NCBI GenBank assembly: GCA_052034935.1 | Contig: JBPOIB010000005.1 | Location: 16,357-80,356 of the forward strand | Origin: Candidatus Moraniibacteriota bacterium | GTDB taxonomy: Bacteria; Patescibacteriota; Minisyncoccia; Moranbacterales; UBA1568 | DNA length: 64,000 nt | Direction: 5' to 3' | Shown: positions 13,099 to 27,700 of the stretch, one piece after another | Layout of the letters: the number at the start of each line of letters is the position of its first letter | Position numbering within the stretch: the first letter of the stretch is position 1 | Program-made: the position numbers and the translations under genes | Notes under the pieces: model-generated | Databases searched by the model: none | What the model was told of the DNA's origin: nothing | Seen by the model: the letters and a program-made list of their open reading frames with translations, nothing else

Positions 13099-13154
13099 CT
13101 GCTTTTTCGTATCACTCAGCCGTTCGCTGCGTGTTAGACTGGGAAGATAAGATT

Positions 13155-14525
13155 ATGCTTTCCCTAAAAAGGTCTATGACGCTGAAGTGGCTTGCCCGGA
13201 TTCATCTCGGACTGCTCCTTTTTTCATTTTTCCTGTACCTCGGATTCGGATTTGTTTTCGGCCCGGAATTTCTCTACCAAGACATTCGGAAAAAACTTTT
13301 CGCGTTCGCCGCGGATGATATCGTCGTGACGGCTGTGGTCCCTGGCCCGCCTGCCGCCCCAATCATCACTGCCACTCCAACTTGTATTTCCGGCGCCCCA
13401 CGTATCGTGCTCGACTGGCCGGATGATAACGGAAGCACGAGTTTCGATGTGGACCGTGACTCGATGGCACTCACGAGCGGATTAGTCGTTTCTGGTTATA
13501 CCGATACCGCCGTTACCGCTGTCACCACGTACAGTTATGAAGTGACCGCCTTTGGACCAATGGATCCAGGTACAGCGGTTTCTGCGTCTTTCTCGGTCAC
13601 AACACTCGACTGCTCAAATATCGCACCGGTGACCGTGACTATCGAGACACTCGGAGGAAAGAGCGTTATAACGGACCGAACCAATGTTGATATCACAAAA
13701 TTTCGGCCGAAGATCTCGGGCACCAGCAATACTCCGGATGCCATCATCGATATCCTGGTTACCAATCCGACGCTTCGAGCCCGGATACTCGCCAATTCCA
13801 ATGGTTATTTCGAATGGCTTCCGCCGATCAAGCTCGATGCCGGCCGGCACTTGATCGAAATTACAGCGACCGATCCTACGGATCCCAGTCGGACCGCGAC
13901 GGATGCACTCATCTTCAAAGTGATAGGAAGTGGGGATAATGGGGGTGGTGGTGCTCGACCGAATGAATCAGGGGATCTGAGTCTTCCGGAAAGTGGAGGT
14001 GGTATCGACTTCTTTGTGACGGTGAATAACGAGCAGTCAATCGTTTCTCAGGAAGAGATACTTTCCGTTACTCTCGCCACCCGGAAAGGTGTTTTTCCTG
14101 AAGACACGACCGCGAGTATCTTCCTCAATAATCCGGATTATCAGGACTCGCTCCAATTTTCGAGGCTGCCGCTCCTCGCCGGACAGAAGAGCGTGACGCT
14201 GTTTGAGCGTCTTCCGCTCTATCTTGAACCCGGCCAGTACCGCGTCCGGGCCGATGTGGTGGTTCGCGGAGAGATGACGAGTCGGGAGGCTTCGTTCACC
14301 TTGAAACCGCTTCCGTTTTTCTCACTTGCCGGGCGGGAAATCAGCTACGCTGAGGCGGCGAATTACATCGGTTTCTTCTTTTTCTCGCTCCTTTTTCTTT
14401 TTCTCTTTCTCCTCCTCTTCTTCGTCCGTGAATACTGGCTGTCGCTGCATCGTCTTCGTTCAATTACCGAGCGCCATCTCGGCCGTCTCGGATTTCTCGG
14501 AACCGGAAAGGGGGTGATCCGATGA
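13155..14525 (+). CDS. bitopic membrane protein with extracellular Ig/FN3-like beta-rich region
   Basis: N-terminal TM (start taken at the ATG 13155 with GGAAG upstream; the track starts at GTG 13131), T/S/V-rich beta repeats, and a C-terminal hydrophobic FFFSLLFLFLFLLLFF segment. Confidence 0.5.
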   Translation: MLSLKRSMTLKWLARIHLGLLLFSFFLYLGFGFVFGPEFLYQDIRKKLFAFAADDIVVTAVVPGPPAAPIITATPTCISGAPRIVLDWPDDNGSTSFDVDRDSMALTSGLVVSGYTDTAVTAVTTYSYEVTAFGPMDPGTAVSASFSVTTLDCSNIAPVTVTIETLGGKSVITDRTNVDITKFRPKISGTSNTPDAIIDILVTNPTLRARILANSNGYFEWLPPIKLDAGRHLIEITATDPTDPSRTATDALIFKVIGSGDNGGGGARPNESGDLSLPESGGGIDFFVTVNNEQSIVSQEEILSVTLATRKGVFPEDTTASIFLNNPDYQDSLQFSRLPLLAGQKSVTLFERLPLYLEPGQYRVRADVVVRGEMTSREASFTLKPLPFFSLAGREISYAEAANYIGFFFFSLLFLFLFLLLFFVREYWLSLHRLRSITERHLGRLGFLGTGKGVIR

Positions 14526-14842: not shown

Positions 14843-14947
14843 CTTTCGAGAGTGAGGAGAAATGAGCGGCTTCGGCTGCTTGTTTTTTTATCTGACCATG
14901 ATAAGGTTGTGGCATCGATTCAACGACCCAACGCGGAGGAATCAACC

Positions 14948-16342
14948 ATGAGAGTTCTTTCCATACTGATACTCGTTCTCGTTACGTCTCTTTCGGTACG
15001 GGCCAACACATTTCCGGAAGAAGCCTACTACGAGCGGGTGCTGGCCGAAGAAGCAAACGTGTTCGTCGATTGCGACGCGCTTGAAACGGGGCGTCTGACC
15101 TGTGAGCGGATCAAGACAGCCCGCCGTTTGGCCTACCAGGCCAAGCTGCAGACTTTCGACCAGCTCGAAGGGAAACGCCGCGTGCCGTATCGGGAATTCG
15201 CGCTCATCGTCTATGATCCGGAAACGAAAGGATTCCGCGATCTGCGTCTCGGCATGCCGGTCAATGTCGCCAAGGCACCTCATTTTCAGCCGATCGTCCT
15301 CTCTGGGGACGCGACTGATTGTCAGGTGACGCGGCTTCGTGGCCAGTCGCTCAACAAGATGGTCTTCGATATCGTCTGTGGCGGACGCACGCTTCACGCC
15401 TACGCGGCGAAACATCTGCTCTTTGCCGATGTGAAGCTGCACGCTCTTTGGGGTGGCCGGACGATTCCGCGGACCGAAGAGGTGGTGTACCTCGAGGTCT
15501 CGCCACACTTCGTTTCCGAGGAAACGGCCCGGGCTGGTCAGGCGGTGTTCATGCAGCTCATCGAGCAAGCATTCACCGATTTGCGTGAGCTCGGTGTCCC
15601 GTCACGGTCTTCGCCCGGACGTCTCCTGGCTGACGTCGTCACCGTCGATTCGGTGGCGAACCTCCTGGTCACTGAACAGGCAGATCCGTGCTTCCGGCAA
15701 GGTGAGCGGACGAAAGGCTGCAAGCGTCTCATTCCACAACGGCCCTATCGGGACAATGCAGAGGTGATGCAAGCAGTGAACACGGCCTTCTTCCTGAATG
15801 GCGGTCTCGCGTATCGCTACATGCGTTCGGGCGCTGCTGCGGGCGGGGCGCTCCAGTTCACGAATAACCGTACGAAGCGGTATATCGGGACCTATAATAG
15901 CGTTCTCAAGAACTGTCCCAGCGCCCGGATCGATCCTGACTTCCAGCGAGGGACGCGGAGTATCCGCAATCTGGCCAAGGCGGCAGCGTGTCTCATCGAC
16001 ATGGAGCGGGCGGCGCTTCCTGAATGGGCGCGCGAAGCCTATCACCGCGATCCAGAATTCGGTCTGCCGATTCTCGGCGCCGCCTACAATGGAGGTGCAG
16101 CACGAGCGAGGACAGTGGCCCGGCTCATCGAAACCTTTGCCAAGAAGCATGGAATCAATGAGGAGATGTTCCTCTTCCATCTTTTTCCTTGGGATGAGTT
16201 CCTCGCCTGGATCGATCGGGTCCAGCACGGGCTGCCACCGGAAACGCGCGTGTACATCGAGAAGATCATCGATACAACGCGGCATCTCTATCGGCATCGT
16301 CCGAAAATGCCAGAAGTGAACTTTGAAGGGGCTCTCGGCTGA
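14948..16342 (+). CDS. secreted hypothetical protein; the C-terminal region carries an SLT-like AYNGG motif
   Basis: GGAGGAA RBS before ATG 14948; signal peptide MRVLSILILVLVTSLSVRA. The motif ...ALQFTNN...AAYNGGAARARTV only weakly resembles lytic-transglycosylase motifs. Confidence 0.5.
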   Translation: MRVLSILILVLVTSLSVRANTFPEEAYYERVLAEEANVFVDCDALETGRLTCERIKTARRLAYQAKLQTFDQLEGKRRVPYREFALIVYDPETKGFRDLRLGMPVNVAKAPHFQPIVLSGDATDCQVTRLRGQSLNKMVFDIVCGGRTLHAYAAKHLLFADVKLHALWGGRTIPRTEEVVYLEVSPHFVSEETARAGQAVFMQLIEQAFTDLRELGVPSRSSPGRLLADVVTVDSVANLLVTEQADPCFRQGERTKGCKRLIPQRPYRDNAEVMQAVNTAFFLNGGLAYRYMRSGAAAGGALQFTNNRTKRYIGTYNSVLKNCPSARIDPDFQRGTRSIRNLAKAAACLIDMERAALPEWAREAYHRDPEFGLPILGAAYNGGAARARTVARLIETFAKKHGINEEMFLFHLFPWDEFLAWIDRVQHGLPPETRVYIEKIIDTTRHLYRHRPKMPEVNFEGALG

Positions 16343-17675: not shown

Positions 17676-18185
17676 ATGACGAAACGATTTTTTTCCTCTC
17701 CGGCATTTACCATAATTGAGCTCCTCATCGTCGTTGCGATTATCGGTATCCTAACGAGCACGGTGACCGTTTCGCTGAACGCCTTCCGGCTTAAAGCACA
17801 GGCTTCTCAGGCGGTTGTCGATCTCGTTCGGATCGCGTCATACCTGGAGTCGTACCGGGGGAACTACGGCGCCTACCCGCTTTCCTGCGGGGATGGTAGC
17901 GGCTGGGCGAGCCGTGACTTAAATCCTTGGGGGTGTGGCCTTGGTGCCTGTTGGATTGGGCAGTTTTCAACCGAAGGTTGGTGTCCGTTACCATCCAATC
18001 CGAATAATCCGCCAGCCTATAATCTGACTGCGGCCGAGAGCCAGTACATCTATTACTCCAATGGTGTCAACTACAAGCTCCTCTATCATAATGCGGTCAG
18101 CATCGATGTCCCTGGCGAGTTTTTAGATCCGATCCGGCCGACTTGGGCCTTCGGTATCTGGAGCCCGGGTGCTGCTGCCTGGTAA
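17676..18185 (+). CDS. type IV pilin-like / pseudopilin protein with N-terminal methylation motif
   Basis: ...SPAFTIIELLIVVAIIGIL is a class III signal. It has Ala rather than Gly at -1. The C-terminal domain is Cys-rich. Confidence 0.65.
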   Translation: MTKRFFSSPAFTIIELLIVVAIIGILTSTVTVSLNAFRLKAQASQAVVDLVRIASYLESYRGNYGAYPLSCGDGSGWASRDLNPWGCGLGACWIGQFSTEGWCPLPSNPNNPPAYNLTAAESQYIYYSNGVNYKLLYHNAVSIDVPGEFLDPIRPTWAFGIWSPGAAAW

Positions 18186-18202
18186 TCCCATCCTAAGATT
18201 GT

Positions 18203-18439
18203 ATGGTCAAAAGATTCATTTACTGGTTTGAGCTAAGAACGGGGATTTATCTTCATCCAAGATTTGTCGTTTCTATCGGGCTGCTTCTGATGGCGATTGT
18301 CATATTCCTGGTTGTGTCATTCTTTGCTCATAGCTATGCGGAAAGCGTGAAGACAATCGGTCCGACAACCGAAAAGGAACGGGCTGAATATGATGCCAAG
18401 ATGCGGGCAGGAATCCCTAATGGTTCGTTATCGCGCTAG
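18203..18439 (+). CDS. small membrane protein, hypothetical
   Basis: 78 aa with one long hydrophobic helix. Confidence 0.35.
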   Translation: MVKRFIYWFELRTGIYLHPRFVVSIGLLLMAIVIFLVVSFFAHSYAESVKTIGPTTEKERAEYDAKMRAGIPNGSLSR

Positions 18440-18518
18440 TGCTAGCGGGGGGGATACACGTAGCGAATACCCTTCCTTTGTCGAGCTCACCGCAAGTCTT
18501 GACAAAAAAATAAAAACC

Positions 18519-18568
18519 TGATTAGATAAGGTTTCTAATCAGTGGTGAGGGTTGTTTTTTTTATTCCG
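18519..18568 (+). terminator. Rho-independent terminator
   Basis: ctgattag-ataaggttt-ctaatcag stem, then a downstream run of Ts (ttttttttatt). Confidence 0.6.
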
Positions 18569-18614
18569 ACTACCCAAGTGCTGAAAATCAGTTTTCAGCG
18601 GAAATGCTAAAGAT

Positions 18615-19073
18615 ATGGATATATCCGCCCTGTTTAAGTTTCGCCAAGCTGTCCTCTATGGTATCATCGGCCTCTCGGCCGTGGTGGTCGACTATGCCCT
18701 CTTTTTCCTTCTCCACAATACCTTCCATTGGGAGGCTATCGCAGCAACAGCGGTGTCAGTTTTCATCGCGACCGTCTATGCCTTCCTGTTAAACGCCCGC
18801 CTCAATTTCCAGAAGTCAGACCAGCTCCTTCTTCGTTTCCTCTCTTATTTTGCAGTCAGCGGAATCGGCCTTGTTACCAGCATGGCCTGTCTTTTCCTTT
18901 TCAGCTATCAACTAGGTTTCGATTCCAACATCGTAAAAGCAATCTCGATTCCCTTCATTGTCGTGCTTCAATATGTGCTCAATGTTTTTATCTCTTTTTC
19001 TCAAACGGCATTTGAGGGAAAATCAACTGCTCACTCATCAGAAGTAAGCCACCAGCGAGAGCAATCCATATGA
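18615..19073 (+). CDS. GtrA-family membrane protein (polyprenol-linked sugar flippase-like)
   Basis: 152 aa, 4 TM. N-terminal ...FRQAVLYGIIGLSAVVVDYALFFLL is typical of GtrA/DUF2304-like proteins. Confidence 0.65.
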   Translation: MDISALFKFRQAVLYGIIGLSAVVVDYALFFLLHNTFHWEAIAATAVSVFIATVYAFLLNARLNFQKSDQLLLRFLSYFAVSGIGLVTSMACLFLFSYQLGFDSNIVKAISIPFIVVLQYVLNVFISFSQTAFEGKSTAHSSEVSHQREQSI

Positions 19074-20398
19074 ATCAGGACCAGAAAAAAAGTGTTGCCA
19101 TAATCGGTGGAGGATTCGCTGGCCTTTCGGCGGCGTATCACCTCAGCAAAGAGGGGATCCAAGTGACGCTCTATGAGCGCGAATCGACGCTCGGGGGTCT
19201 CGCTGGCGGGTTTTCTCTTCTTGGGATGCCGCTCGAGAAAGCGTATCATTTTTTCTACAAGACCGACCGTCATCTCCTCGGATTCGCCGAAGCACTCGGC
19301 ATCAAGGCAAAAGCGGCCTTCTACCAGAGCTCGGTTTCGACCTATTTCGATGGCAAACTTTATCCCTTCATGAGTGCTAAGGACCTGCTCTCGTTTTCCC
19401 CGCTGCCGTTCCTCGACCGGATCCGTTTCGGGGTAAGTGCGCTCTATCTCCAATTTCTGAAGGACTGGAAGCCGCTGTCGAAGATTACAGCGTACGAATG
19501 GCTCAAGAAATGGGCCGGTCCCAAGGTGACGGAAGTCATCTGGGAGCCGCTTCTCAAGGGGAAATTCAACAAGTACTACAAGGATATCGCCATGTCATGG
19601 CTTTGGCGCCGCATTCAGATCCGGGCAGTCTCCAAGGATAAGGGGGTTGAGATGCTCGGCTACTTCCACGGCGGATTCGTCGCCATCATCGACGCGGCCG
19701 CAGAAAAGATCAAATCTTTCGGCGGAACGATCATAACAAATCAGGGAATCGACCGGATTGAGTCAAGCGAAAAGGGTGCTGTGCTCGTCATAAACGGCGA
19801 GCGCCGAACGTATGATGCGGTGATTGCGACAGTCCCATCGCCTGCTTTCGCCCGCCTCATCGCGGGGAATACTGGAGCGAGCGAGGAGTATCTCGCAAAG
19901 CTCAAAAGTATCGATTATCTCGGCGCGGTCATTATGGTCTTCGCGACCGACCAGGAAATCAGCCCGTACTTCTGGCACAACATCAATGATTCGGAGATCC
20001 CTTTCCTCGTGCTTCTCTCGACCTCGGCGCTGACGGGGACCGAGGCGTTCAATGGCAAGCACATCTATTACATCGGAGCGTATGTTCCAGCTGAGCATCG
20101 CTATTTCTCCGAGTCTGAAACCGGTATCATGGCTGAATGGAAAGCGGGGCTGAAGAAGATGTTCGTCCATTTCGACGAGTCGAAGATTCTCGAGGAAAAA
20201 CTCTTCCGATTCAAGGATGCCCAGCATATCGTCGGAACCGACTATATCGACAAGATTCCGGCCTATGAATCACCGGTGAAAGATGTCTATCTTTCGAATT
20301 TCTCCCAGATTTTCCCGGATGACCGGGGAACGAACTATGCCATCGAGGAGGGAAAGAAAATCGCCTCGCTTGTCATGAAAAATATCCGCATTGAATAG
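19070..20398 (+). CDS. FAD/NAD(P)-binding oxidoreductase (amine-oxidase / PPO / phytoene-desaturase superfamily; UGM-like possible)
   Basis: N-terminal dinucleotide fold VAIIGGGFAGLSAAYHL...YERESTLGGLAGGF. Start overlaps the gtrA stop (ATGA). Confidence 0.7.
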   Translation: MNQDQKKSVAIIGGGFAGLSAAYHLSKEGIQVTLYERESTLGGLAGGFSLLGMPLEKAYHFFYKTDRHLLGFAEALGIKAKAAFYQSSVSTYFDGKLYPFMSAKDLLSFSPLPFLDRIRFGVSALYLQFLKDWKPLSKITAYEWLKKWAGPKVTEVIWEPLLKGKFNKYYKDIAMSWLWRRIQIRAVSKDKGVEMLGYFHGGFVAIIDAAAEKIKSFGGTIITNQGIDRIESSEKGAVLVINGERRTYDAVIATVPSPAFARLIAGNTGASEEYLAKLKSIDYLGAVIMVFATDQEISPYFWHNINDSEIPFLVLLSTSALTGTEAFNGKHIYYIGAYVPAEHRYFSESETGIMAEWKAGLKKMFVHFDESKILEEKLFRFKDAQHIVGTDYIDKIPAYESPVKDVYLSNFSQIFPDDRGTNYAIEEGKKIASLVMKNIRIE

Positions 20399-20402
20399 CG
20401 CT

Positions 20403-23261
20403 ATGCCTAAAGGAGTGATACTACTAAACAATATCGATCTTACGATACTTCTCCCCACTTACAATGAGGCGGCGAATGTCGCTCCTTTGCTGCGGGCAAT
20501 CGTGCAGGCGCTCAAAGAGGTTCCGGTTGCCTATGAAATTCTCTTCGTTGATGACAGCTCGGACATGACGCCGGATGTCATCCGGAGAATGCAGGAGCTG
20601 TATCCGAATCTGCGGTTGATTCACCGGTCTCCGGAAGAGAGAACTGGCCTCGCGACAGCACTCATCGAAGGATTTTCGGCGGCGCAAGGACAATATATTC
20701 TCTGCATGGACTCCGATCTTCAACATCCTCCCCAGGTCATCCCGAAGCTTTTGGAAAAGCTCAAGGAAAGTGATGCGGATATTGTGGTTGCGACCCGATA
20801 TGCGGGTGAGGGGAGCGCTGAGGGACTCGGAAGCCCCTACCGGCGTGCCGTGTCTCATCTCTGCCGATTCGCTTCATGGTGCCTTATTCCCCAGACTCGG
20901 AAGACAACGGATCCGGGGAGCGGCTTTTTCGTCTTTCGGAAGTCGATTGTCGGTCGGGTGAATTTCCGTGGTCTGCGCGGGTTCAAAATCCTTATTGATA
21001 TCCTCGCTCGTACCAAGAAGCTAGATGTTGCCGAAATCCCCTTCGTTTTCCTCAAACGGACGAATGATGAAAGCAAAGCGACCGTTGAGCAGGGATTCGC
21101 TTTCATTTTCCATCTCCTGACGCTCAAATACCTCGACTATTTCCCGACGAAGATTCCGAGACAGACAAAGAGTGTCGAGAGCGCGTCCCCTATCACACGA
21201 AAGCCTTTTGATTGGAAACACGCTTTGCCGGGCTGGATCGCCGATGGAATTATCGCCCTACTTGTCGGCTTTGTTGGCTGGTATCTCATCGGTTACTACG
21301 CCGCTTTCAACTATCTTTACACGGGCTACGAGGACTGGATCTATCACGCCTTCCGGGTGAAGTCGCTTCAGGATCACGGCATGGTGGCGTGGGACCATGT
21401 CTGGAGCAACGGCATCAGCTACTGGAAGCTTTACCAGTACGTGGCGCATTTCCTCATCCTCGGCGCGGTCAAATTGACCGGCTTGCCGATTACCAAAGTT
21501 CTCCTCTTGTCGCTGGTCGGCCTGTATATCGGTCTCCGGGTAGTCCTGTATTTTATCTTGCGTTCGCTCGGCGTGCAGCGCATTTTTGCTCTCTTGCCGG
21601 TCATCGCCTCGTATACCATCGTTCAAGAGTGGGGCTCGATGCAGGACTACTCGATCTACGTTGCGTTCATCGCGTTTCCGCTTTACCTTGTTCTCTGGAT
21701 CTTGACGTTCCGCGACCTCAAGTGGATCTATCTCTTAGCGGCGGTGACCGGCGCGGTCTGGACATTCCATCCGGTGCTTGGGTTTAATGCGACTATCCTC
21801 CTCGGTTTCCTTGCCCTGTTCTCGCGGCTGAAGACGGACTTTTCAAAGCTGGTACGCGTCGGTGCGGTCTACATATTTGCCTCTGCCCCGTTCTGGGTCT
21901 CCTACTTCACGGCGGGCTATTTCTTCACAAATCCGCTTTTCAAGTCCTACATCTATCTCTCGACATCGGTTCTGGCCCCGTACGCCGGGCTGAGCATGAT
22001 TTACTGGATTCTCCTCGGTATCTCATGGTTGCTTGTCATCTGGCGCTCCAATCTCGTCCCGACGTGGACTAAAGTACTCCTCGTCTACGCGTCATCCTAT
22101 CTCATTCTTATTTATCTCGGTCAGCAGAACTATCTTCCGAATTTCCTCGTCCAATTCCAGTTCTCTCGAGGACTGACCGCGGTTGCCTTTGCGCTTGTCT
22201 TTGTCTTCGGATCAGTATTGCAGCATACTCTCGGTCAAGCGCGGATGCAGGCGGTCCGTTTTATCGCAGTTGTGCTTATCGCGACAGCGACCGTTCATGC
22301 GGTCGACATCGCCTCGCGCTTCTATGTCTCACCGCCGGTGAACGAGATCCAGAACGCGGTCGCGACCTACTTCCAGGACCGCGAATTGCCGAAGGGGAGC
22401 GTCTTCACGGAGAATGTTTCTGAGGCGACGTATTTCGCTAAAGGTGGAATCCGGTACGTCACTTCATACAATGAGCACATGCAGCCGCATCCGTATTCGA
22501 CGCGTCTTCGTGTACTCATGCACAGCCGACTCGGGTATACGGGAATCTCGAAATCGCATATTACGAACGTGGAAAATTATGCGACCGTGCTCGGTATCGA
22601 GTACCTTTTTCTCCCGGCTAACTCGCCGCTGGTCAAAGGTCTGACTGAAAAAGAGAACGCCATGTTTGCTGTGATGGCGTACGTCGACAGCGAGCCTCTG
22701 ACGGATGCGATTGCTGTCCTTCGGAATACCAATCCGATAATTTCAGCGTTTGCTCTCGAGCGGTCGGATTTCCCGGACCGGCTCTGGAATGAGGAGCTCC
22801 CACTCCCCACGATCCATGTCGGATCGTACAAGCGTTGGGACGACCGGATTGCCGAGATGGCCGAGCTGATGCGCTCGGAGAAAATCGTTCCCCTCGAAAC
22901 CGAATTCATTCCGACGAATGAGTTGAGGCTTTCCGTGACCGATCCAGCCAAAGTCTTTCTGATCAAAGACCTGCTTGTTATTGTTAATCAGAGTTATGAT
23001 GCCCGATGGGCGGTTACCGATACGGAAGAGGGTGCTCCATCGATTACCCCGACGACCCTCCGTTTCATGGCCGTTGACCGAGGTGAAGGGCGGTTGTCGC
23101 TTCCGATCATGCTTCTCAACGAATGGCCATGGTGGTATTTTCCCGTCCAGGCATTTGGATTGGTGGCCATTCTCTTCACGCTGTTCTGGACCTTGAAGAC
23201 GAGCGGTTTCCCGAGACGATTCATGAAAATGCTCTCAGAGCGATACTATGCCAACAAATAA
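20403..23261 (+). CDS. fusion protein: N-terminal GT2 polyprenol-phosphate sugar synthase (DPM1/GtrB-like) + C-terminal ~13-TM GT-C-like domain
   Basis: LLPTYNEAANV...FVDDSSDMT...CMDSDLQHPP matches GT-A fold DxD motifs. Residues ~270-950 are polytopic with long loops. Confidence 0.7.
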   Translation: MPKGVILLNNIDLTILLPTYNEAANVAPLLRAIVQALKEVPVAYEILFVDDSSDMTPDVIRRMQELYPNLRLIHRSPEERTGLATALIEGFSAAQGQYILCMDSDLQHPPQVIPKLLEKLKESDADIVVATRYAGEGSAEGLGSPYRRAVSHLCRFASWCLIPQTRKTTDPGSGFFVFRKSIVGRVNFRGLRGFKILIDILARTKKLDVAEIPFVFLKRTNDESKATVEQGFAFIFHLLTLKYLDYFPTKIPRQTKSVESASPITRKPFDWKHALPGWIADGIIALLVGFVGWYLIGYYAAFNYLYTGYEDWIYHAFRVKSLQDHGMVAWDHVWSNGISYWKLYQYVAHFLILGAVKLTGLPITKVLLLSLVGLYIGLRVVLYFILRSLGVQRIFALLPVIASYTIVQEWGSMQDYSIYVAFIAFPLYLVLWILTFRDLKWIYLLAAVTGAVWTFHPVLGFNATILLGFLALFSRLKTDFSKLVRVGAVYIFASAPFWVSYFTAGYFFTNPLFKSYIYLSTSVLAPYAGLSMIYWILLGISWLLVIWRSNLVPTWTKVLLVYASSYLILIYLGQQNYLPNFLVQFQFSRGLTAVAFALVFVFGSVLQHTLGQARMQAVRFIAVVLIATATVHAVDIASRFYVSPPVNEIQNAVATYFQDRELPKGSVFTENVSEATYFAKGGIRYVTSYNEHMQPHPYSTRLRVLMHSRLGYTGISKSHITNVENYATVLGIEYLFLPANSPLVKGLTEKENAMFAVMAYVDSEPLTDAIAVLRNTNPIISAFALERSDFPDRLWNEELPLPTIHVGSYKRWDDRIAEMAELMRSEKIVPLETEFIPTNELRLSVTDPAKVFLIKDLLVIVNQSYDARWAVTDTEEGAPSITPTTLRFMAVDRGEGRLSLPIMLLNEWPWWYFPVQAFGLVAILFTLFWTLKTSGFPRRFMKMLSERYYANK

Positions 23262-24774
23262 CGCTTCCAAATCCGAACGCTACCTCGCTTCGACGCGGAT
23301 CGACAATCTGACGATTGTTTTCCTCCTGTCAGCGCCGTTTGTCGTGGTATTTTACGCCTCCTTCGTTTTCAATCCGGCGAACGCTGACCACCTCGTCCTC
23401 TATGCTTTCCAGGTGCTGGCTGATGCGATCAGTATCACGGTCTTGGCCGGACTCTGGGTGACCGTGCTTCTTGATGTGGTCGTGGAGTGGCATCATCGTC
23501 TCCGGAGAGTCTGGGATGCGGCTTTTCTCGAAACAGACAAACCGACCATCGACTGCATTGTGACCACTTTCAATGAGCCGATCGATGTCGTAGAGAAAAC
23601 CTTCAAAGCAGTACTCGCCATGGAGTATCCTCATTCGAGCTATGTCTTTGACGACGGCCAGTCAGCTGGGGTAGAAGCGCTCGCTAAGAAACTCGGCATC
23701 CAGTATGTGACCCGCAGTGACCGCAAGCATGCGAAAGCGGGGAATCTCAATAGCGGGCTCCAGAGCTGCACGGGCGATTTCTTTGCGGTCTTTGATGCTG
23801 ACCAGGTACCGAAATCGGATTTCATCACGACACTGCTTCCATATATGGCAAACAGCCGTGTCGCTATGGTGCAATCGCCTCAGCATTATGAGAATACTCA
23901 CCAATTCATTGCAGCCGGTGCAGCGCAGGCTCAAGAGGTCTTTTATCGCTACGTCTGTCCCTCCAAGAACATTTCGAACTCAGCCTTCTGCGTCGGGACA
24001 AACATGATTTTCCGGCGCTCGGCCATCAATCATATTGGTGGTATCGCCTTCAACAAGTCGGAAGACATTTGGACATCGCTTAAACTCCACGAGAGCGGTT
24101 GGCAGACGATTTTTGTGAACAAAGTTCTCGCGATCGGCCAGGCCCCGGCGACAGTCGTCTCCTACTTCAAACAGCAGCTCCGTTGGGCGAGAGGCGGTTT
24201 GGAGATGCTTTTCTTTCATAATCCGCTTCGTTCGAACAAGCTTCAGCTCGATCAGCGTATCCAGTACTTTATGTCGAACTCCTTTTTCCTCGTCGGGATT
24301 TCGATTACGGTCTATCTCCTTTTCCCGCTTCTCTATCTCCTTTTCTCCATCAAGCCACTCACGACCGAATCTCCCTTCACCTGGCTGATCCACTATGTCC
24401 CGTTCTTCCTGCTCTACTATTCGCTGACCTGGCTTCTGACGGGCCGCCTCTCGGTCTCAACACTTGCGACCGCACTGGCGACTTTCTTTCCGTACCTTCT
24501 CGCTCTGTTTTCGGTATTTTTCGACAAGGAACATGAATGGACGGCGACAACCTCAAAGAAAAGCTCTGAAGATTTCTTCATGAAATGGGCCTGGCCGCAT
24601 GTTTTCATCATCGTGCTTACTCCGCTCGCGCTCGTGGTCGGTTGGTATAATAACTACGACTTCTGGTCGGGGCTGTTCTACTCGATGTGGTCAGTGATCA
24701 ACATGCTTCTCCTCTACGTATTCATTACCGGAGAAAAACGTTCCGGTATTCGGGCAAAGACCACTGTTATCTAA
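23248..24774 (+). CDS. processive family-2 glycosyltransferase (cellulose/curdlan-synthase-like)
   Basis: TFNEP..., DDG, FDAD, TED-like, and QQLRWARG (QxxRW), with flanking TM helices. Confidence 0.75.
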   Translation: MPTNNASKSERYLASTRIDNLTIVFLLSAPFVVVFYASFVFNPANADHLVLYAFQVLADAISITVLAGLWVTVLLDVVVEWHHRLRRVWDAAFLETDKPTIDCIVTTFNEPIDVVEKTFKAVLAMEYPHSSYVFDDGQSAGVEALAKKLGIQYVTRSDRKHAKAGNLNSGLQSCTGDFFAVFDADQVPKSDFITTLLPYMANSRVAMVQSPQHYENTHQFIAAGAAQAQEVFYRYVCPSKNISNSAFCVGTNMIFRRSAINHIGGIAFNKSEDIWTSLKLHESGWQTIFVNKVLAIGQAPATVVSYFKQQLRWARGGLEMLFFHNPLRSNKLQLDQRIQYFMSNSFFLVGISITVYLLFPLLYLLFSIKPLTTESPFTWLIHYVPFFLLYYSLTWLLTGRLSVSTLATALATFFPYLLALFSVFFDKEHEWTATTSKKSSEDFFMKWAWPHVFIIVLTPLALVVGWYNNYDFWSGLFYSMWSVINMLLLYVFITGEKRSGIRAKTTVI

Positions 24775-24805: not shown

Positions 24806-25705
24806 ATGGCCAAAGCAAACTCACAATCAATCAGAAGTTTTCTTGCGAATTCCGGCTATCTCATCCTCGTTTTTGTCTTTGCTTTTGCGATTGCGACTCA
24901 GGCGCTCATGCACAAGATTAATAATTATGAGCTGAATAAGAGTCTTATATTTCTGCTCGTGAAAAAGGAGCGAGTCGATGTATCGACGACAGTAAGCGGT
25001 CGTGTTGAAGAAATTCTTGTGCGCCCGGGAGTCCATGTGAACGAGGGAGATGTGCTGGTCCGTTTGAAAGACGACGGCCGTGAACTCAAGATTGCGGCGC
25101 TTCGCCCGGTGGCTCGCGAGAATCTTTCAGCTCGTACCGAACTAGAGCTGCTTTTATCTCAGGAAAATGAATACGAGCTCCGCGCCCCGCGGTCCGGTGT
25201 CGTAGAGTCGATCTTATCTACCAAGGGGACGACCGTCATCAACGGCGCAGTGGTGCTGATTGTGTATGCTGATGATGAGCTCGAGCTTGTCGGGACAATT
25301 CGACCAGAGCAGTATAATTTGATCGACAAACACCGAAGTATTAGTATCTTCAACCCGCGTCTCGGTCAAGCCTTCACGGCTTCATTCCAGGGGATTACTG
25401 GCGTACGGGATGATCTTCTGCCAGATGGTACGATTGCTCCAATACAGCAGCCGGGTGGTCAGTCGACAAACGACCAGCAGCCAGTGGAGATGTACGAGAT
25501 ACGCTTCGCTCTTAACGAAAAAGAAGAGGGCGCATCCTTTATTGAGGGCGAGCGGCTGGAGGTGATTTCTGAAAATGCCGACATCGAGCAGGAGAAGCCG
25601 ATTTATCGGCTCGCCAAGCTCTGGAACAGCCTCATCCTCGGAACGGACTTCGAATCGCTTCGGAAATATAATGAAGGAAAAAATGATTCTCAAGAATCGC
25701 AGTAA
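24806..25705 (+). CDS. HlyD/membrane-fusion-like protein (single N-terminal TM, lipoyl-like hairpins)
   Basis: VSGRVEEILVRPGVHVNEGDVLVRL and YELRAPRSGVVESI resemble the beta-barrel/lipoyl motifs of periplasmic adaptor proteins. Confidence 0.45.
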   Translation: MAKANSQSIRSFLANSGYLILVFVFAFAIATQALMHKINNYELNKSLIFLLVKKERVDVSTTVSGRVEEILVRPGVHVNEGDVLVRLKDDGRELKIAALRPVARENLSARTELELLLSQENEYELRAPRSGVVESILSTKGTTVINGAVVLIVYADDELELVGTIRPEQYNLIDKHRSISIFNPRLGQAFTASFQGITGVRDDLLPDGTIAPIQQPGGQSTNDQQPVEMYEIRFALNEKEEGASFIEGERLEVISENADIEQEKPIYRLAKLWNSLILGTDFESLRKYNEGKNDSQESQ

Positions 25706-27641
25706 GTGGATCGTGCTCGGAACCGCCGTCCTGGCGGTTCTTTTCTGGCAAGTATTTTCATCGCCAATGAAACCGGAGAGTGAGGTGATTCTCGAGGAAA
25801 AAAAGTTCGCTCCTGAGACGCGTGGCGTACCGCTCCGAACCAATACCTGGTTCTCGAGCCTTTTCTTCCAATTCCCAACCGCTCCGCTCTTTGTCTTCCC
25901 CGGATCATACCAGTTGAATGAGCGCGGCCTCTCGGTCAGCGATTCGAATGCTCTTGGTACGGAAAATACCATCTTCGGGAGCTTTGATCCACTCTGCGAT
26001 ATCGCTGGGCCGTTGCCTCTCACGGGCGTGAAAGTAGAACGGTACGGTGACTGGGATATCGTCGCCCGGGTGATATCGAAAGAGGGAGCAGCCTGGTCAG
26101 CACATTTCATCCAGGGATCGCCGGTCGTCAATATCGGCGACTTCTCAGAACCCCTTTCTTTTTCCTGCAAGCCAGGAATAGAGGTGTCAAACTACCGGAG
26201 CGACACCCTTCTGGCTCGCCAGGGTGACCAGCCGGTATTCCTGGTTCAAGCAGAGAGTCCGATTGCCGAGTCCGGAGGACTCCGTTCAGCTACTGGAAAG
26301 TACCGGATCATCCAGGTACCAAAAGAGACGGCCCAGCCTCTCGATTTTTTCCTCGATCTTCCCTGGGTGACCATACTCGATACGCAGTATGCGACATCGG
26401 ATCGGGATGGCTTCTTGCATACGCAGCTCGTGACCGTGACCGGAGATGACGAGCCTATTCTCATGACACTCTGGCCGCATCATCGTCTCGGCGGTGCCGA
26501 AATTCGGGGTGAACAGTTGGGGAGTTACTCCACGGTCTATGGTCGGCTGGATCTGCAACTCTCGAATCGGATTGATATTGAAACAGCCAAGCCAAAGCTT
26601 GTAACCGGCTTCTCGCCCGTCTCTGGCCAGAAGTCAGTCGAAGAAATACGCTCGGCGGTGAAAGAGGATACTGCTCGCTATCTGTCCGAGACGATACCGG
26701 GCGGAGTTTACTTCCGTGGTACCTGGCTCGGTGGTCTCGCGAGCGTCATCCAGTTGGCTGAAGCCTATGGAATGGACGAAGAGGAGCGAGTATTGCTTGA
26801 TCTTCTGGAGCGCCAGCTTCGGAGTTCACTCGTCGACTTTGCCTATAGCGAAGAAAAAAAGATGTTCATCGCTTCGAAAAATTCCGAATTCGGCAATGAG
26901 AAGGGGAACGACCATCACTTCCACTACGGTTACTACCTGCGCTCAGCCGCGGTTTTGTTCGATGCCCGTCCGGCTGCGGGCGATGACTTGAAAGCGATCC
27001 TCGATGAGATGGCACTCGATATCGCGAATAGCGACCGGTCATCGGAACGCTACCCTTTTCTCCGTCACTTCTCACCGTACGCCGGACACTCGTGGGCGGA
27101 CGGGGAAGCGCTTTTCCAAGATGGGAACAATCAGGAATCATCATCGGAAGCGATGAATGCCTGGTACGGGCTGTATCTCTGGGGGAAATCGACTGACAAT
27201 AGTCGTCTTACGAAGATCGCCACAGGCCTCTATACCAATGAACTCCTCGGCCTCCGGAGCTACTGGTTCGGCGAAGGGAATCCATTTCCGACAGGATTTG
27301 AGCATCCGCTCGTTTCGCTCGTGTGGGGCGGGAAACGCGATTATGCGACCTGGTTCAGTGGGGACCCGATGCATATCCAAGGGATTCAGTGGCTACCCAT
27401 CACGCCGGCATCCGAGTATCTCGGAACGTTGCCGAATCAGCCGGAACGGATGAGGGATCTCGGTCTGGATCCTTCCGCGGCCGCGGACCATGAGTGGGGC
27501 GACCTCTATATCGCGTACCTTTCCTCTTTTGACCCGGTCGAAGCGGCGAAGCATCTCGACACTGCCTCAAAACGCCAAGCAATCAAATCGAAAGCGTTGC
27601 TGTATCATGTCGTCCTGATGAATCTGGAAAACAGGCGGTAG
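25683..27641 (+). CDS. GH81-like endo-beta-1,3-glucanase, membrane-anchored/extracytoplasmic
   Basis: AAGGA RBS; N-terminal TM. ...NDHHFHYGYY... and ...NQESSSEAMNAWYGLYLWG match, from memory, the GH81 catalytic motifs (Asp in DHHxHYGY; ExxxE pair). Confidence 0.5.
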   Translation: MILKNRSKWIVLGTAVLAVLFWQVFSSPMKPESEVILEEKKFAPETRGVPLRTNTWFSSLFFQFPTAPLFVFPGSYQLNERGLSVSDSNALGTENTIFGSFDPLCDIAGPLPLTGVKVERYGDWDIVARVISKEGAAWSAHFIQGSPVVNIGDFSEPLSFSCKPGIEVSNYRSDTLLARQGDQPVFLVQAESPIAESGGLRSATGKYRIIQVPKETAQPLDFFLDLPWVTILDTQYATSDRDGFLHTQLVTVTGDDEPILMTLWPHHRLGGAEIRGEQLGSYSTVYGRLDLQLSNRIDIETAKPKLVTGFSPVSGQKSVEEIRSAVKEDTARYLSETIPGGVYFRGTWLGGLASVIQLAEAYGMDEEERVLLDLLERQLRSSLVDFAYSEEKKMFIASKNSEFGNEKGNDHHFHYGYYLRSAAVLFDARPAAGDDLKAILDEMALDIANSDRSSERYPFLRHFSPYAGHSWADGEALFQDGNNQESSSEAMNAWYGLYLWGKSTDNSRLTKIATGLYTNELLGLRSYWFGEGNPFPTGFEHPLVSLVWGGKRDYATWFSGDPMHIQGIQWLPITPASEYLGTLPNQPERMRDLGLDPSAAADHEWGDLYIAYLSSFDPVEAAKHLDTASKRQAIKSKALLYHVVLMNLENRR

Positions 27642-27664: not shown

Positions 27665-27700
27665 AACGGGCTTCTCAAAAGAGAAGCCCGGCCTTTTTAT
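27665..27700. terminator. bidirectional terminator
   Basis: cgggcttctc-aaaa-gagaagcccg followed by gcctttttat. Confidence 0.8.

Follow-up and report, generated by a model that had tools for sequence, protein, structure and literature searches.

A predicted polyprenyl-phosphate sugar synthase fused to a GT-C module of no described family, encoded beside a putative β-glucan synthase cassette in a Moranbacteria bacterium

Results

The window, which is the whole stretch of 64,000 nucleotides that was analysed, derives from an uncultured Moranbacteria (CPR) bacterium and contains the operon presented in Table 1. The stop codon of the GtrA gene overlaps the start of the FAD oxidoreductase gene at 19070. 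The FAD oxidoreductase reaches 428 bits against PRK07233, which is over the cutoff, and has more than 1,400 homologs, many of them fused to a GtrA domain. The cellulose-synthase-like (CesA-like) GT2 is characterized by the motifs FDAD, SED and QQLRW and by at least six hydrophobic segments; it matches BcsA structures (E 5e-45) and scores 242 bits, under the cutoff, against TIGR03030. This protein stops at aa 508 and gives no match to a PilZ domain, and no BcsB-like gene was found in the operon. The reading frame of the GH81 gene opens at 25575, and its likely start is 25671.

Table 1. Features of the operon and of the domains of the fused protein (positions in the window).
Feature	Position	Strand	Evidence or remarks
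GtrA-family small membrane protein, 152 aa, 4 TM	18615..19073	+	PF04138 (E 2e-19); four hydrophobic segments
FAD-dependent amine-oxidase/phytoene-desaturase-like oxidoreductase, 442 aa	19070..20398	+	PF01593 (E 3e-25); NCBIfam PRK07233
Fused ORF: predicted GT2 polyprenyl-phosphate sugar synthase, linker and GT-C module	20403..23261	+	952 aa
GT2 (GT-A fold) catalytic domain and amphipathic interface helices, aa 1-247	20403..21143	+	PF00535, 5mlz, Foldseek
Disordered basic linker, aa 248-270	21144..21212	+	5 K/R; pLDDT <50 for aa 249-263 in the full-length model
GT-C membrane core, aa 271-637	21213..22313	+	about 11 TM helices
Extracytoplasmic α/β domain, aa 638-911 (274 aa)	22314..23135	+	AF2 secondary structure, conservation
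C-terminal TM anchor (aa 912-933), basic cytoplasmic tail, stop codon	23136..23261	+	
Cellulose-synthase-like processive GT2, 508 aa, about 6-8 TM	23248..24774	+	PF13641, PF13632, PF03552
HlyD/membrane-fusion-protein-like protein, 299 aa, N-terminal TM anchor	24806..25705	+	Biotin_lipoyl, HlyD_3, TIGR01730
GH81-family glycoside hydrolase, N-terminal signal anchor	25671..27641	+	PF17652 (E 2e-46); N-terminal TM
10-bp GC-rich hairpin with flanking T runs	27667..27690	.	bidirectional terminator-like site closing the operon

The fused gene has two candidate starts, TTG at 20391 and ATG at 20403, and the 952-aa product listed in Table 1 is counted from the ATG (ORF listing and translation). The initial annotation had proposed that a GT2 domain and a polytopic domain of ~680 aa form one polypeptide, and this was borne out: a single frame runs through the gene, and the C-terminal part comprises aa 271-952 (682 aa). 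The region around 21150-21250, where an interruption of the frame had been considered, contains neither a stop codon nor a frameshift in the assembled sequence, and the same fusion was found in about 37 independent cluster representatives of 923-952 aa, 47-91% identical, from NCBI, JGI, ENA and Logan assemblies. The linker, which is presumably cytoplasmic, has no internal Met, and a separate start for the GT-C part is therefore excluded. In the full-length AF2 model (pTM 0.72) this linker is disordered, so that no fixed arrangement of the GT2 and GT-C domains is predicted. The public record annotates the protein only as 'polyprenol monophosphomannose synthase', and the GT-C module is missed.

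The GT2 half matches PF00535 at aa 14-180 (E 1e-29) and is modelled with a pLDDT >90 across the domain. Its best relative in the PDB is the dolichyl-phosphate mannose synthase (DPMS) of Pyrococcus furiosus (5mlz, E 2e-39), with which aa 10-241 align; the alignment covers the catalytic domain, the acceptor loop (DPxSGFF) and the membrane-docking amphipathic interface helices. GtrB and ArnC rank after DPMS, and the top 23 Foldseek matches are all DPMS, ArnC or GtrB. The DPM1/GtrB-like character that had been ascribed to the N-terminus is thus well founded, and the sequence of the GT2 half marks it as a DPMS/GtrB/ArnC-type synthase of polyprenyl-phosphate hexose. Three DxD motifs had also been listed, of which DSDLQHPP holds the true one, D103-S-D105, pairing with D-A-D of 5mlz; LLPTYNE (aa 16-22, with PTYNE at aa 18-22) is the PxYNE nucleotide-binding motif, and the remaining motif is VDDSSD at aa 49-54. 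The acceptor loop reads DPGSGFF (aa 170-176), and residues N21, E22, D54, Q107 and D170 are invariant among 42-43 sequences. The nearest relatives of this half are proteins of roughly 375 aa that combine a GT2 with a GtrA_DPMS_TM domain. The NCBIfam equivalogs that fix the sugar (PgfS, ArnC, PpgS, AglJ and the halophilic Dol-P-hexose transferase) gave 34-64 bits against cutoffs of 325-529. The sugar loaded by the GT2 domain is most likely mannose, taken from GDP-mannose, since DPMS stands well ahead of all other solved relatives, since genes of GDP-mannose supply adjoin two sister loci (L026 and L028), and since one protein, P0277, joins a DPMS-like GT2 to a PF01050 domain.

The GT-C module is modelled with high confidence (AF2 pLDDT 89.5, pTM 0.89). 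It had been described as having about 13 TM helices with large loops; its polytopic nature and its large outer domain (aa 638-911) were confirmed, and the count is now estimated from AlphaFold helices, hydropathy and the positive-inside rule, with which the topology agrees, at about 12, that is about 11 in the core and the last one at aa 912-933. The Foldseek comparison returned glycosyltransferases as the best matches (AftD with a TMq of 0.50, AftA, PglB, AglB and STT3), in keeping with the GT-C-like fold that had been suggested for this part, and the longest structural alignments were those with AftD and AftA, both of which carry soluble domains. The module has the polytopic fold common to the PMT, STT3/PglB, ArnT, Aft/Emb and ALG enzymes. 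The first outer loop contains the motif Y309-E-D311-W (codons 21327-21338), which follows TM1 (aa 271-301) by 8-11 residues, where the first loop helix begins. D311 is invariant in 43/43 sequences, and position 310 is E or Q. D311 may be regarded as the putative counterpart of the catalytic Asp of solved GT-C enzymes, solely by its position in the first outer loop. Further invariant motifs of the outer loops are VQEWGSMQD (aa 407-415), W453..H456-P457, FTN510P and Q586FSR589, and the outer domain, which is presumed to bind the acceptor, holds the invariant motif S688-Y-N690-E-H..P697..R701. D311 and several of the outer-loop motifs are unchanged across about 28-100% identity.

The window protein gave no match at E <= 10 to the HMMs of the GT-C families YfhO (PF09586), PTPS_related (PF10131), PMT_2 (PF13231) and PMT (PF02366), and 0/19 members of the module family matched the Pfam models of GT-C families at E <= 1. 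The Pfam families YfhO, PTPS_related and DUF6541 (PF20176) share the same plan, namely a polytopic core, then a large outer domain on the C-terminal side and one last TM helix, but no member of the module family reaches these models, even at E <= 1. The hhalign comparison tied the module to proteins with YfhO or PTPS_related signatures (probabilities 97.8% and 91%), and proteins in the weak tail of the profile search carry domains of the Pfam GT-C families; the relation is remote and runs via intermediate sequences. No sequence similarity to Aft proteins was found. The module is a member of no described family. At 50% identity its own family forms about 158 clusters in a collection of 1.84 billion protein representatives, and every organism-labelled member is either a CPR bacterium or a MAG with a doubtful label.

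Both fused and split forms were encountered when homologs in related genomes were compared. Besides the cluster representatives, nine further fused loci were read directly, and the linker varies in sequence among fused homologs, yet is always in frame. The fused forms constitute one clade, and the fusion arose once. Other relatives encode the GT-C module alone, with no fused GT2. One close homolog (P0013) seemed to be split, and the apparent split proved to be a run of N at a scaffold gap, not a pair of separate genes.

The gene neighbourhood was surveyed in 24 loci with a fused or stand-alone module. The CesA-like GT2 gene lies directly downstream of the GT-C gene in 24/24 loci and is followed by the HlyD-like gene in 22/24; in the other two (L007 and L009) the contig stops inside the synthase gene. 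A GH81 gene flanks the cassette in 21/24 loci, the exceptions being these two truncated contigs and L005, which has no match. The GtrA gene is located upstream in all fused loci, and the FAD oxidoreductase gene always sits between it and the GT2. Two stand-alone-module loci also encode GtrA, the oxidoreductase and the GT2 as unfused genes within about 5 kb of the cassette, all directly downstream in L019 and with the GT2 upstream in L020. In most stand-alone-module loci the genes for the donor synthase, GtrA and the oxidoreductase are absent within 10 kb; there the donor must come from another place, unless the module functions in another way. Sister CPR loci contain other fusions of these activities, namely FAD oxidoreductase to GtrA, DPMS-like GT2 to another GT2, which is synthase-like, and a PMT_2 GT-C to GH8. 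The glucanases of the sister loci belong to GH8/GH6, as opposed to GH81 here.

Discussion

The linkage of the GT-C gene with the CesA-like, HlyD-like and GH81 genes suggests a glucan as the acceptor. Characterised GH81 enzymes are endo-β-1,3-glucanases (CAZy), and the β-glucan is probably β-1,3-linked, as judged from the family assignment of the GH81 protein only. The reading considered marginally probable is that of a Gtr-type three-component system in which the synthase and the transferase are fused and which decorates a synthase-made β-glucan. At the cytoplasmic face, the GT2 domain would move a hexose from a nucleotide sugar onto polyprenyl phosphate. The lipid-linked sugar would possibly first be altered by the adjacent FAD oxidoreductase, which probably acts on this sugar or on the polyprenyl carrier, and would then reach the outer leaflet by way of the neighbouring GtrA protein, a putative flippase for polyprenyl-P-sugar. 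The GT-C module, which should take a polyprenyl-phosphate-linked sugar as its outer-face donor given its fusion to or clustering with the donor synthase and GtrA, would transfer the sugar via the Asp311 loop to an acceptor held by the outer domain. The acceptor would most probably be the β-glucan made and extruded by the CesA-like GT2 and the HlyD-like protein, and GH81 would trim or process it. Among the points counted against this decoration of a glucan are the occurrence of an HlyD-like protein in a CPR cell that presumably has a single membrane, and the stand-alone-module loci with no donor genes within 10 kb.

Direct channelling of the product by the fusion is impossible, because the sugar-lipid arises at the inner face of the membrane and is consumed at the outer one. 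For the same reason a flippase is still needed, and a GtrA gene lies two genes upstream. The fusion fixes the stoichiometry and co-localises the making and spending of the donor, and flipping is not bypassed. The fusion arranges a known kind of pathway in a new way and introduces no new principle.

Three-component systems are represented by Shigella phage Gtr, by CsbB(GtlA)-GtcA-YfhO(GtlB) of Bacillus and Listeria, and by the machinery of streptococcal rhamnan side chains (PMC5836110, PMC7389260, PMC8035078, PMC11127046). In the papers on these systems no mention of a natural fusion of GT2 to GT-C was found. The locus shares with them a cytoplasmic GT2 that loads polyprenyl phosphate, a GtrA-family protein and a polytopic outer GT-C, all encoded together. 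The Gtr-type acceptor is a pre-made polymer, and here an assembled surface glycan is suggested by the synteny with the synthase. The Gtr-type components are three separate polypeptides, whereas here GT2 and GT-C form one chain; moreover, the GT-C is of no described family, the donor module obligatorily includes the FAD oxidoreductase, and the presumed acceptor is a synthase-dependent β-glucan instead of an O-antigen, a teichoic acid or a rhamnan. Precedents are provided by three-component systems that glycosylate completed polymers, some of them with oxidoreductases acting on the lipid-linked sugar (PMC11127046, PMC11194591), and by a GT2 synthase and HlyD-like pair for β-glucans, bgsBA (PMC13438883).

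The archaeal DPMS has the PxYNE, DxD and DPxSGFF motifs in common with the GT2 half. Its catalytic domain is followed by a four-helix GtrA-like membrane domain, whereas here a whole GT-C module takes that place and GtrA is encoded separately. In the mycobacterial arabinan machinery, Rv3789 (GtrA-like), the decaprenyl-P-ribose oxidoreductases DprE1/DprE2 and the GT-C enzymes AftA/AftD are encoded together. The likeness lies in the co-encoded GtrA-family protein, the flavoenzyme with a lipid-linked sugar as its presumed substrate and the polysaccharide-modifying GT-C, while the flavoenzyme fold is that of amine oxidases and phytoene desaturases here and that of vanillyl-alcohol oxidase in DprE1, and the donor synthase is a GT2 here and a phosphoribosyltransferase there. 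In Ppm1, an Lnt-like membrane domain is fused to a polyprenyl-P-mannose synthase. The enzyme of Mycobacterium tuberculosis (PMC3485146) is also a natural fusion of such a synthase to a polytopic membrane domain, but its partner is acyltransferase-like, and here it is a GT-C enzyme that would consume the product.

On the side of the glucan, the cyanobacterial Xcs cellulose system serves as a comparison for synthase-dependent β-glucans. The rhizobial mixed-linkage glucan system BgsA/BgsB (PMC13438883), Xcs, BcsA/BcsZ and the curdlan synthase CrdS share with this locus a BcsA-like QxxRW GT2, an HlyD-like protein and an endoglucanase. Here PilZ and BcsB are missing, the glucanase is a GH81, and the GT-C gene is an invariant fourth member that occurs in none of these systems.

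In two other readings the lipid-linked sugar does more than decorate. The broader one, regarded as rather unlikely, holds that the whole branch (DPMS-like GT2, FAD oxidoreductase, GtrA and GT-C) is integral to β-glucan biogenesis in CPR bacteria, that the GT-C primes, anchors or cross-links the polymer with a flavoenzyme-modified polyprenyl-P-sugar, and that the glucanase is a processing or transglycosylating partner in one multi-enzyme machine. If this were true, the fusions of DPMS to GT-C, DPMS to synthase-like GT2, GT-C to GH8 and FAD oxidoreductase to GtrA would mark a single machine of a kind undescribed for any bacterial glucan. The narrower reading, considered unlikely, is that the step makes or anchors the glucan, the GT-C supplying a lipid primer or moving the nascent glucan or its first residue to a membrane or wall anchor, after which GH81 would cut or transglycosylate the chain, in resemblance to old lipid-primer models for cellulose. 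The GT-C gene is kept with the synthase as tightly as the HlyD-like gene, which exceeds the expectation for an optional decoration, and the sister fusions of DPMS-like GT2 to synthase-like GT2 and of PMT_2 GT-C to GH8 tie four activities into one machine. Against priming or anchoring stand the core-only loci with no local donor synthase and the fact that the BcsA-type synthases whose structures have been studied work without a lipid primer; moreover, no GT-C enzyme is known to us to prime or anchor a glucan.

An equally unlikely alternative is that the GT-C module is a PMT-like protein O-mannosyltransferase that is supplied with polyprenyl-P-mannose by the GT2 half and whose targets are secreted or surface proteins, such as GH81, pilins or wall proteins, so that the linkage to the cassette reflects glycosylation of the machinery or the glucanase and not of the glucan. 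The absence of the MIR domain and other PMT-specific features, together with Pfam PMT/PMT_2 matches in 0/19 family members, argues against it, and the longest and best Foldseek alignments are with the polysaccharide-modifying AftD and AftA. Furthermore, the polysaccharide synthase gene is contiguous in every surveyed locus, whereas linkage to pilins was seen in only one other locus.

It is quite improbable that the module is inactive and serves the glucan synthase complex as a subunit for structure or translocation, with the fused GT2 feeding other GT-C enzymes. Such a role would be similar to that of PIG-U and GAB1, which are GT-C fold subunits of the GPI transamidase, but the invariance of D311 and of several outer-loop motifs over so wide a range of identity argues against it, and so does the association of the module, by fusion or gene clustering, with a donor synthase and a GtrA gene. 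That the fusion is an artefact in which neighbouring genes were joined by an assembly or sequencing frameshift is a negligible prospect, as only the general rarity of such fusions speaks for it, against an unbroken frame, the recurrence in about 37 representatives and nine further loci with in-frame linkers, and a scaffold gap as the source of the one apparent split.

Conclusions

Matching a GT-C enzyme to its donor and its acceptor is usually difficult. The fusion of a predicted producer to its consumer constitutes Rosetta-stone evidence that gives an orphan GT-C family a donor pathway, and the module defines a new, compact and confidently modelled family of this kind. Lipid-carrier-dependent glycosylation outside the cell and synthase-dependent secretion of glucans are normally treated as separate routes, and the tie between a GT-C enzyme and a putative synthase-dependent glucan links the two here, in bacteria that live attached to other cells and whose envelopes are hardly explored. 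The widespread FAD oxidoreductase may perform new chemistry on lipid-linked sugars or their carrier, and the single-chain enzyme would provide donor synthase and transferase in a 1:1 ratio for reconstitution and cryo-EM.

Architecture of the fused protein

The fused gene is a single plus-strand frame that runs from a TTG at 20391 or an ATG at 20403 to 23261 (952 aa from the ATG). The initial annotation, according to which a GT2 domain continues without a stop into a membrane domain, was confirmed, as neither a stop nor a change of frame occurs within 20403-23261. An identical protein (P0001) is known from a contig of 113 kb. Close relatives, including one encoded on a contig of 1.2 Mb, carry the record title 'polyprenol monophosphomannose synthase [Candidatus Moraniibacteriota bacterium]'. 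In QQR78650.1, MFZ1654636.1 and related records, a 941-aa fused protein bears only the name 'polyprenol monophosphomannose synthase'; the annotation accounts for no more than the first quarter of its length, and the 680-aa GT-C module is left without annotation in public records.

The GT2 domain (aa 1-247) matched PF00535 in Pfam at aa 14-180 (E 1e-29), and its NCBIfam matches, all of them below threshold, were all polyprenyl-phosphate sugar synthases (PgfS, ArnC, AglJ, PpgS and Dol-P-hexose transferase). The closest solved relative was the dolichyl-phosphate mannose synthase (DPMS) of Pyrococcus (5mlz, E 2e-39), followed by GtrB and ArnC, and the alignment to 5mlz extends over aa 10-241, comprising the catalytic domain and the membrane-docking interface helices. 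DPMS, GtrB and ArnC were again on top in a Foldseek search of the PDB with the full-length model, which found no solved chain covering both domains. The 42-43 aligned GT2 sequences all share residues N21, E22, D54, Q107 and D170. The motifs originally proposed are present, apart from a DxD assigned to LLPTYNE, a label which belongs to D103-S-D105. The nearest database relatives of the domain are proteins of about 375 aa from Patescibacteria and Microbacterium that combine GT2 with a C-terminal GtrA_DPMS_TM domain, which is also the architecture of Pyrococcus DPMS. The list of GT2 homologues, obtained by a word-index search, omitted the fused proteins themselves; this was treated as a quirk of the search and not as evidence.

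The C-terminal module (aa 271-952) was recognized by its predicted structure. The C-terminal 702 aa gave no match in Pfam or NCBIfam even at E <= 10, none of 19 members of the module family matched a GT-C family at E <= 1, and a PDB sequence search with the family profile returned just a chance tetraspanin match (E 0.16). The AlphaFold2 model of the module, built with 40 homologs, reached a pLDDT of 89.5 and a pTM of 0.89, and Foldseek aligned it with AftD (TMq 0.50 over 602 columns), and then with AftA, PglB, AglB and STT3. The GT-C fold, suspected from the outset, is thus clear in the model. According to the topology derived from model helices, hydropathy and loop charges, TM1 (aa 271-301) is predicted to run from inside to outside and to lead into a first outer loop bearing Y309-E-D311-W. 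About ten more predicted helices follow, with the short loops SRLKTD, RSNLVP and GQARM placed inside, then a predicted outer alpha/beta domain (aa 638-911), a final helix (aa 912-933) and a basic cytoplasmic tail. GT-C active sites are typified by an acidic residue immediately following TM1, and D311, invariant in 43 of 43 sequences, would be its equivalent by position only. Other invariant residues are W453, H456, P457, N510, Q586 and R589, along with S688, N690, P697 and R701 of the outer domain.

Distribution and reality of the fusion

Both fused and stand-alone homologues occur. PF00535 and the module are fused in about 37 cluster representatives (923-952 aa, 47-91% identical), and the module stands alone in about 17 (28-45% identity). 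The fused proteins all group together as one clade in a neighbour-joining tree of the module. Nested within this clade is a stand-alone GT-C protein of 699 aa (P0026), whose gene either was split secondarily or was called too short. P0013 was rejected as a split form among the close relatives, its scaffold containing a run of N and a GT2 ORF lying directly upstream at the same locus. Between the two halves lies a basic linker (aa 248-270) that lacks Met and has a pLDDT below 50. Since both active sites are conserved in the alignment of 42-43 sequences, both halves are considered to be under selection.

When 1.84 billion representatives were searched exhaustively with the family profile, only 158 clusters of the module family emerged, the majority being stand-alone proteins of 650-690 aa. 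The weak tail of this search contained proteins with Pfam PTPS_related, DUF6541 or YfhO signatures, two of which were linked to the module by hhalign with probabilities of 97.8% and 91%. Because direct family matches are absent and the remote hhalign and profile links lead to proteins of the YfhO / PTPS_related type, the module is placed, on its sequence, as a new family at the edge of this part of the GT-C clan. Some distant members carry other N-terminal additions: a response-regulator receiver domain in P0135 (802 aa) and, by eye, in P0141 (1518 aa) and P0163 (2159 aa), and TPR repeats in P0128 (805 aa). P0141 appears to hold two tandem GT-C-like modules.

Genomic context

Window proteins were compared by tblastn with 24 related loci, five reached via the protein collection and 19 from GTDB species representatives, mostly Moraniibacteriota with one Paceibacterota and one Woesebacteria. 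The cellulose-synthase-like GT2 gene directly follows the GT-C gene in 24/24 loci, and the HlyD-like gene comes next in all 22 whose contig reaches that far; the contigs of L007 and L009 stop inside the synthase gene. In 21 of the 24, this trio is immediately preceded or followed by a GH81 gene; L005, whose contig includes little upstream sequence, gave no GH81 match there. Three states were distinguished: the core cassette only, the core with unfused donor genes, and the fused arrangement. Unfused GtrA, FADox (an FAD amine-oxidase-like oxidoreductase) and DPMS-like GT2 genes are all downstream of the cassette in L019, and in L020 GtrA and FADox are downstream and GT2 upstream. The fused order (GtrA, FADox, GT2::GT-C, synthase, HlyD-like, GH81) was found in the window, in L002 and in L006-L014, for L007 and L009 as far as their contigs extend. 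Some fused loci have an extra GT2 gene directly upstream of GtrA, 28-32% identical to the window GT2.

Identities to the window differ between modules. In L013/L014 FADox is 80-81% and GT-C 48-49% identical, and in L008-L011 (L008, L010, L011) the values are 56-57% and 71%. This discordance suggests that the donor module has been recombined or replaced within the operon. Several MAGs with near-identical Moranbacteria-type operons, L006, L007, L009, L010, L012-L014, L017 and L022 among the records, are labelled 'uncultured Bdellovibrionales', 'Bacteriovoracaceae' or 'Pseudomonadales', which is probably wrong.

Neighbouring genes of the window overlap or lie almost end to end between 18615 and 27641, and a promoter scan found no enrichment over shuffles. 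The synthase contains FDAD, SED and QQLRW motifs and matched BcsA structures at E 5e-45; Pfam detected no PilZ domain in it. A GT2 synthase with a HlyD-like partner is known from the rhizobial mixed-linkage glucan system (bgsBA; PMC13438883). In the window, the HlyD-like protein and GH81 each carry a membrane anchor at the N-terminus; for GH81, the true start is likely an internal ATG (MKEKMILKNRSKWIVLG...), which provides an N-terminal signal anchor. Those GH81 enzymes that have been characterised are endo-beta-1,3-glucanases (CAZy), and GH81 is the sole reason for proposing a beta-1,3 linkage. Outside the operon, the pilin-like gene has a 59%-identical copy at the same relative position in L011, and none was seen in the other loci. 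Two upstream ORFs (464 and 496 aa) were rejected as extra GT-C candidates, having one or two hydrophobic segments each and no family match; they are probably secreted or surface proteins.

Positions of features in the window, the fused protein and related loci
Feature	Sequence	Position	Remark
ORF, 464 aa	window	13131-14525	N-terminal hydrophobic segment; no Pfam/NCBIfam family
ORF, 496 aa	window	14852-16342	N-terminal hydrophobic segment; no Pfam/NCBIfam family
Type IV pilin / pseudopilin-like gene	window	17676-18185	N_methyl motif; upstream of operon
Gap at extra-GT2 position	window	18186-18614	430 bp
GtrA	window	18615-19073	putative flippase gene
FADox	window	19070-20398	
HlyD-like gene	window	24806-25705	
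GH81, mechanical ORF	window	25575-27641	overlaps HlyD-like gene by 131 nt
GH81, likely start	window	25671	ATG
Terminator	window	27667-27690	strong hairpin, 3' of operon
PTYNE	fused protein	aa 18-22	GT2 motif
VDDSSD	fused protein	aa 49-54	GT2 motif
D-S-D	fused protein	aa 103-105	GT2 motif, DxD
DPGSGFF	fused protein	aa 170-176	GT2 motif
Extra distant GT2	L007	258-749	
Extra distant GT2	L008	6706-7410	
Extra distant GT2	L010	6705-7388	
Extra distant GT2	L011	6707-7324	
Sister system	L025	4600-12423	
Sister system	L026	6001-13833	
Sister system	L028	8001-17042	
Sister system	L029	7546-17106	

Donor module and sister system

FADox matched PF01593 and, above cutoff, PRK07233 of NCBIfam. More than 1,400 homologs were found at E <= 1e-10. 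Most are unnamed metagenome proteins, and the few with a named source come largely from CPR. Many of those at about 50% identity are fused to a GtrA domain and 580-620 aa long; P0366, P0369, P0377, P0423 and P0437 were noted among the homologs. The enzyme may act on a lipid-linked sugar or on the polyprenyl carrier. Four of five FADox homologs sampled in genomic context belong to a sister system, on metagenomic contigs that are presumably CPR. This system starts with GtrA and FADox, fused or separate, and includes a 686-852 aa protein in which a DPMS-like GT2 (45-52% identity to its counterpart in the window) is joined to another GT2 that weakly resembles CesA. It further comprises one or two fusions of a PMT_2 GT-C protein with GH8 and, often, a separate GH6 gene. 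The same activities are joined by four different pairwise fusions (DPMS::GT-C, DPMS::synthase-like GT2, GT-C::GH8 and FADox::GtrA), which argues most strongly for their acting in a common pathway. A GDP-mannose supply gene (PF01050) adjoins the sister cluster in L026 and L028, and in P0277 a DPMS-like GT2 is fused to a PF01050 domain; these lend modest support to mannose as the sugar.

Proposed function and novelty

The best-supported interpretation is a Gtr-type three-component system in which the first and last enzymes are fused. A polyprenyl-P-hexose would be synthesized at the inner face, possibly modified by the flavoenzyme while lipid-linked, and flipped with the assistance of GtrA; at the outer face, the GT-C module would then transfer the sugar to the glucan that the adjacent synthase extrudes. 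The earlier proposal that one protein both makes and uses a lipid-linked sugar holds insofar as both domains are present, but the fusion can fix only stoichiometry and proximity, and channelling of the product across the membrane is beyond it.

Counterparts are known for all the components: DPMS/GtrB, GtrA, the GT-C fold, a BcsA-like synthase, a HlyD-like protein and GH81. Known three-component systems, which share the logic proposed here, include oxidoreductase-modified lipid-linked sugars (PMC11127046, PMC11194591). Full-text literature searches on natural GT2/GtrB-GT-C fusions, GtrA with FAD oxidoreductases and CPR glucan synthases turned up neither this architecture nor the cassette, nor any of the four features listed below. 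Novelty was judged against the literature and the PDB, and further uncharacterised GT2::GT-C fusions may well exist elsewhere. The new features are an unclassified GT-C family, observed to date in CPR-type genomes only, the covalent joining of this family to the donor synthase, an obligate amine-oxidase-type flavoenzyme, often fused to GtrA, and the invariant coupling of the GT-C enzyme to a synthase-dependent glucan cassette.
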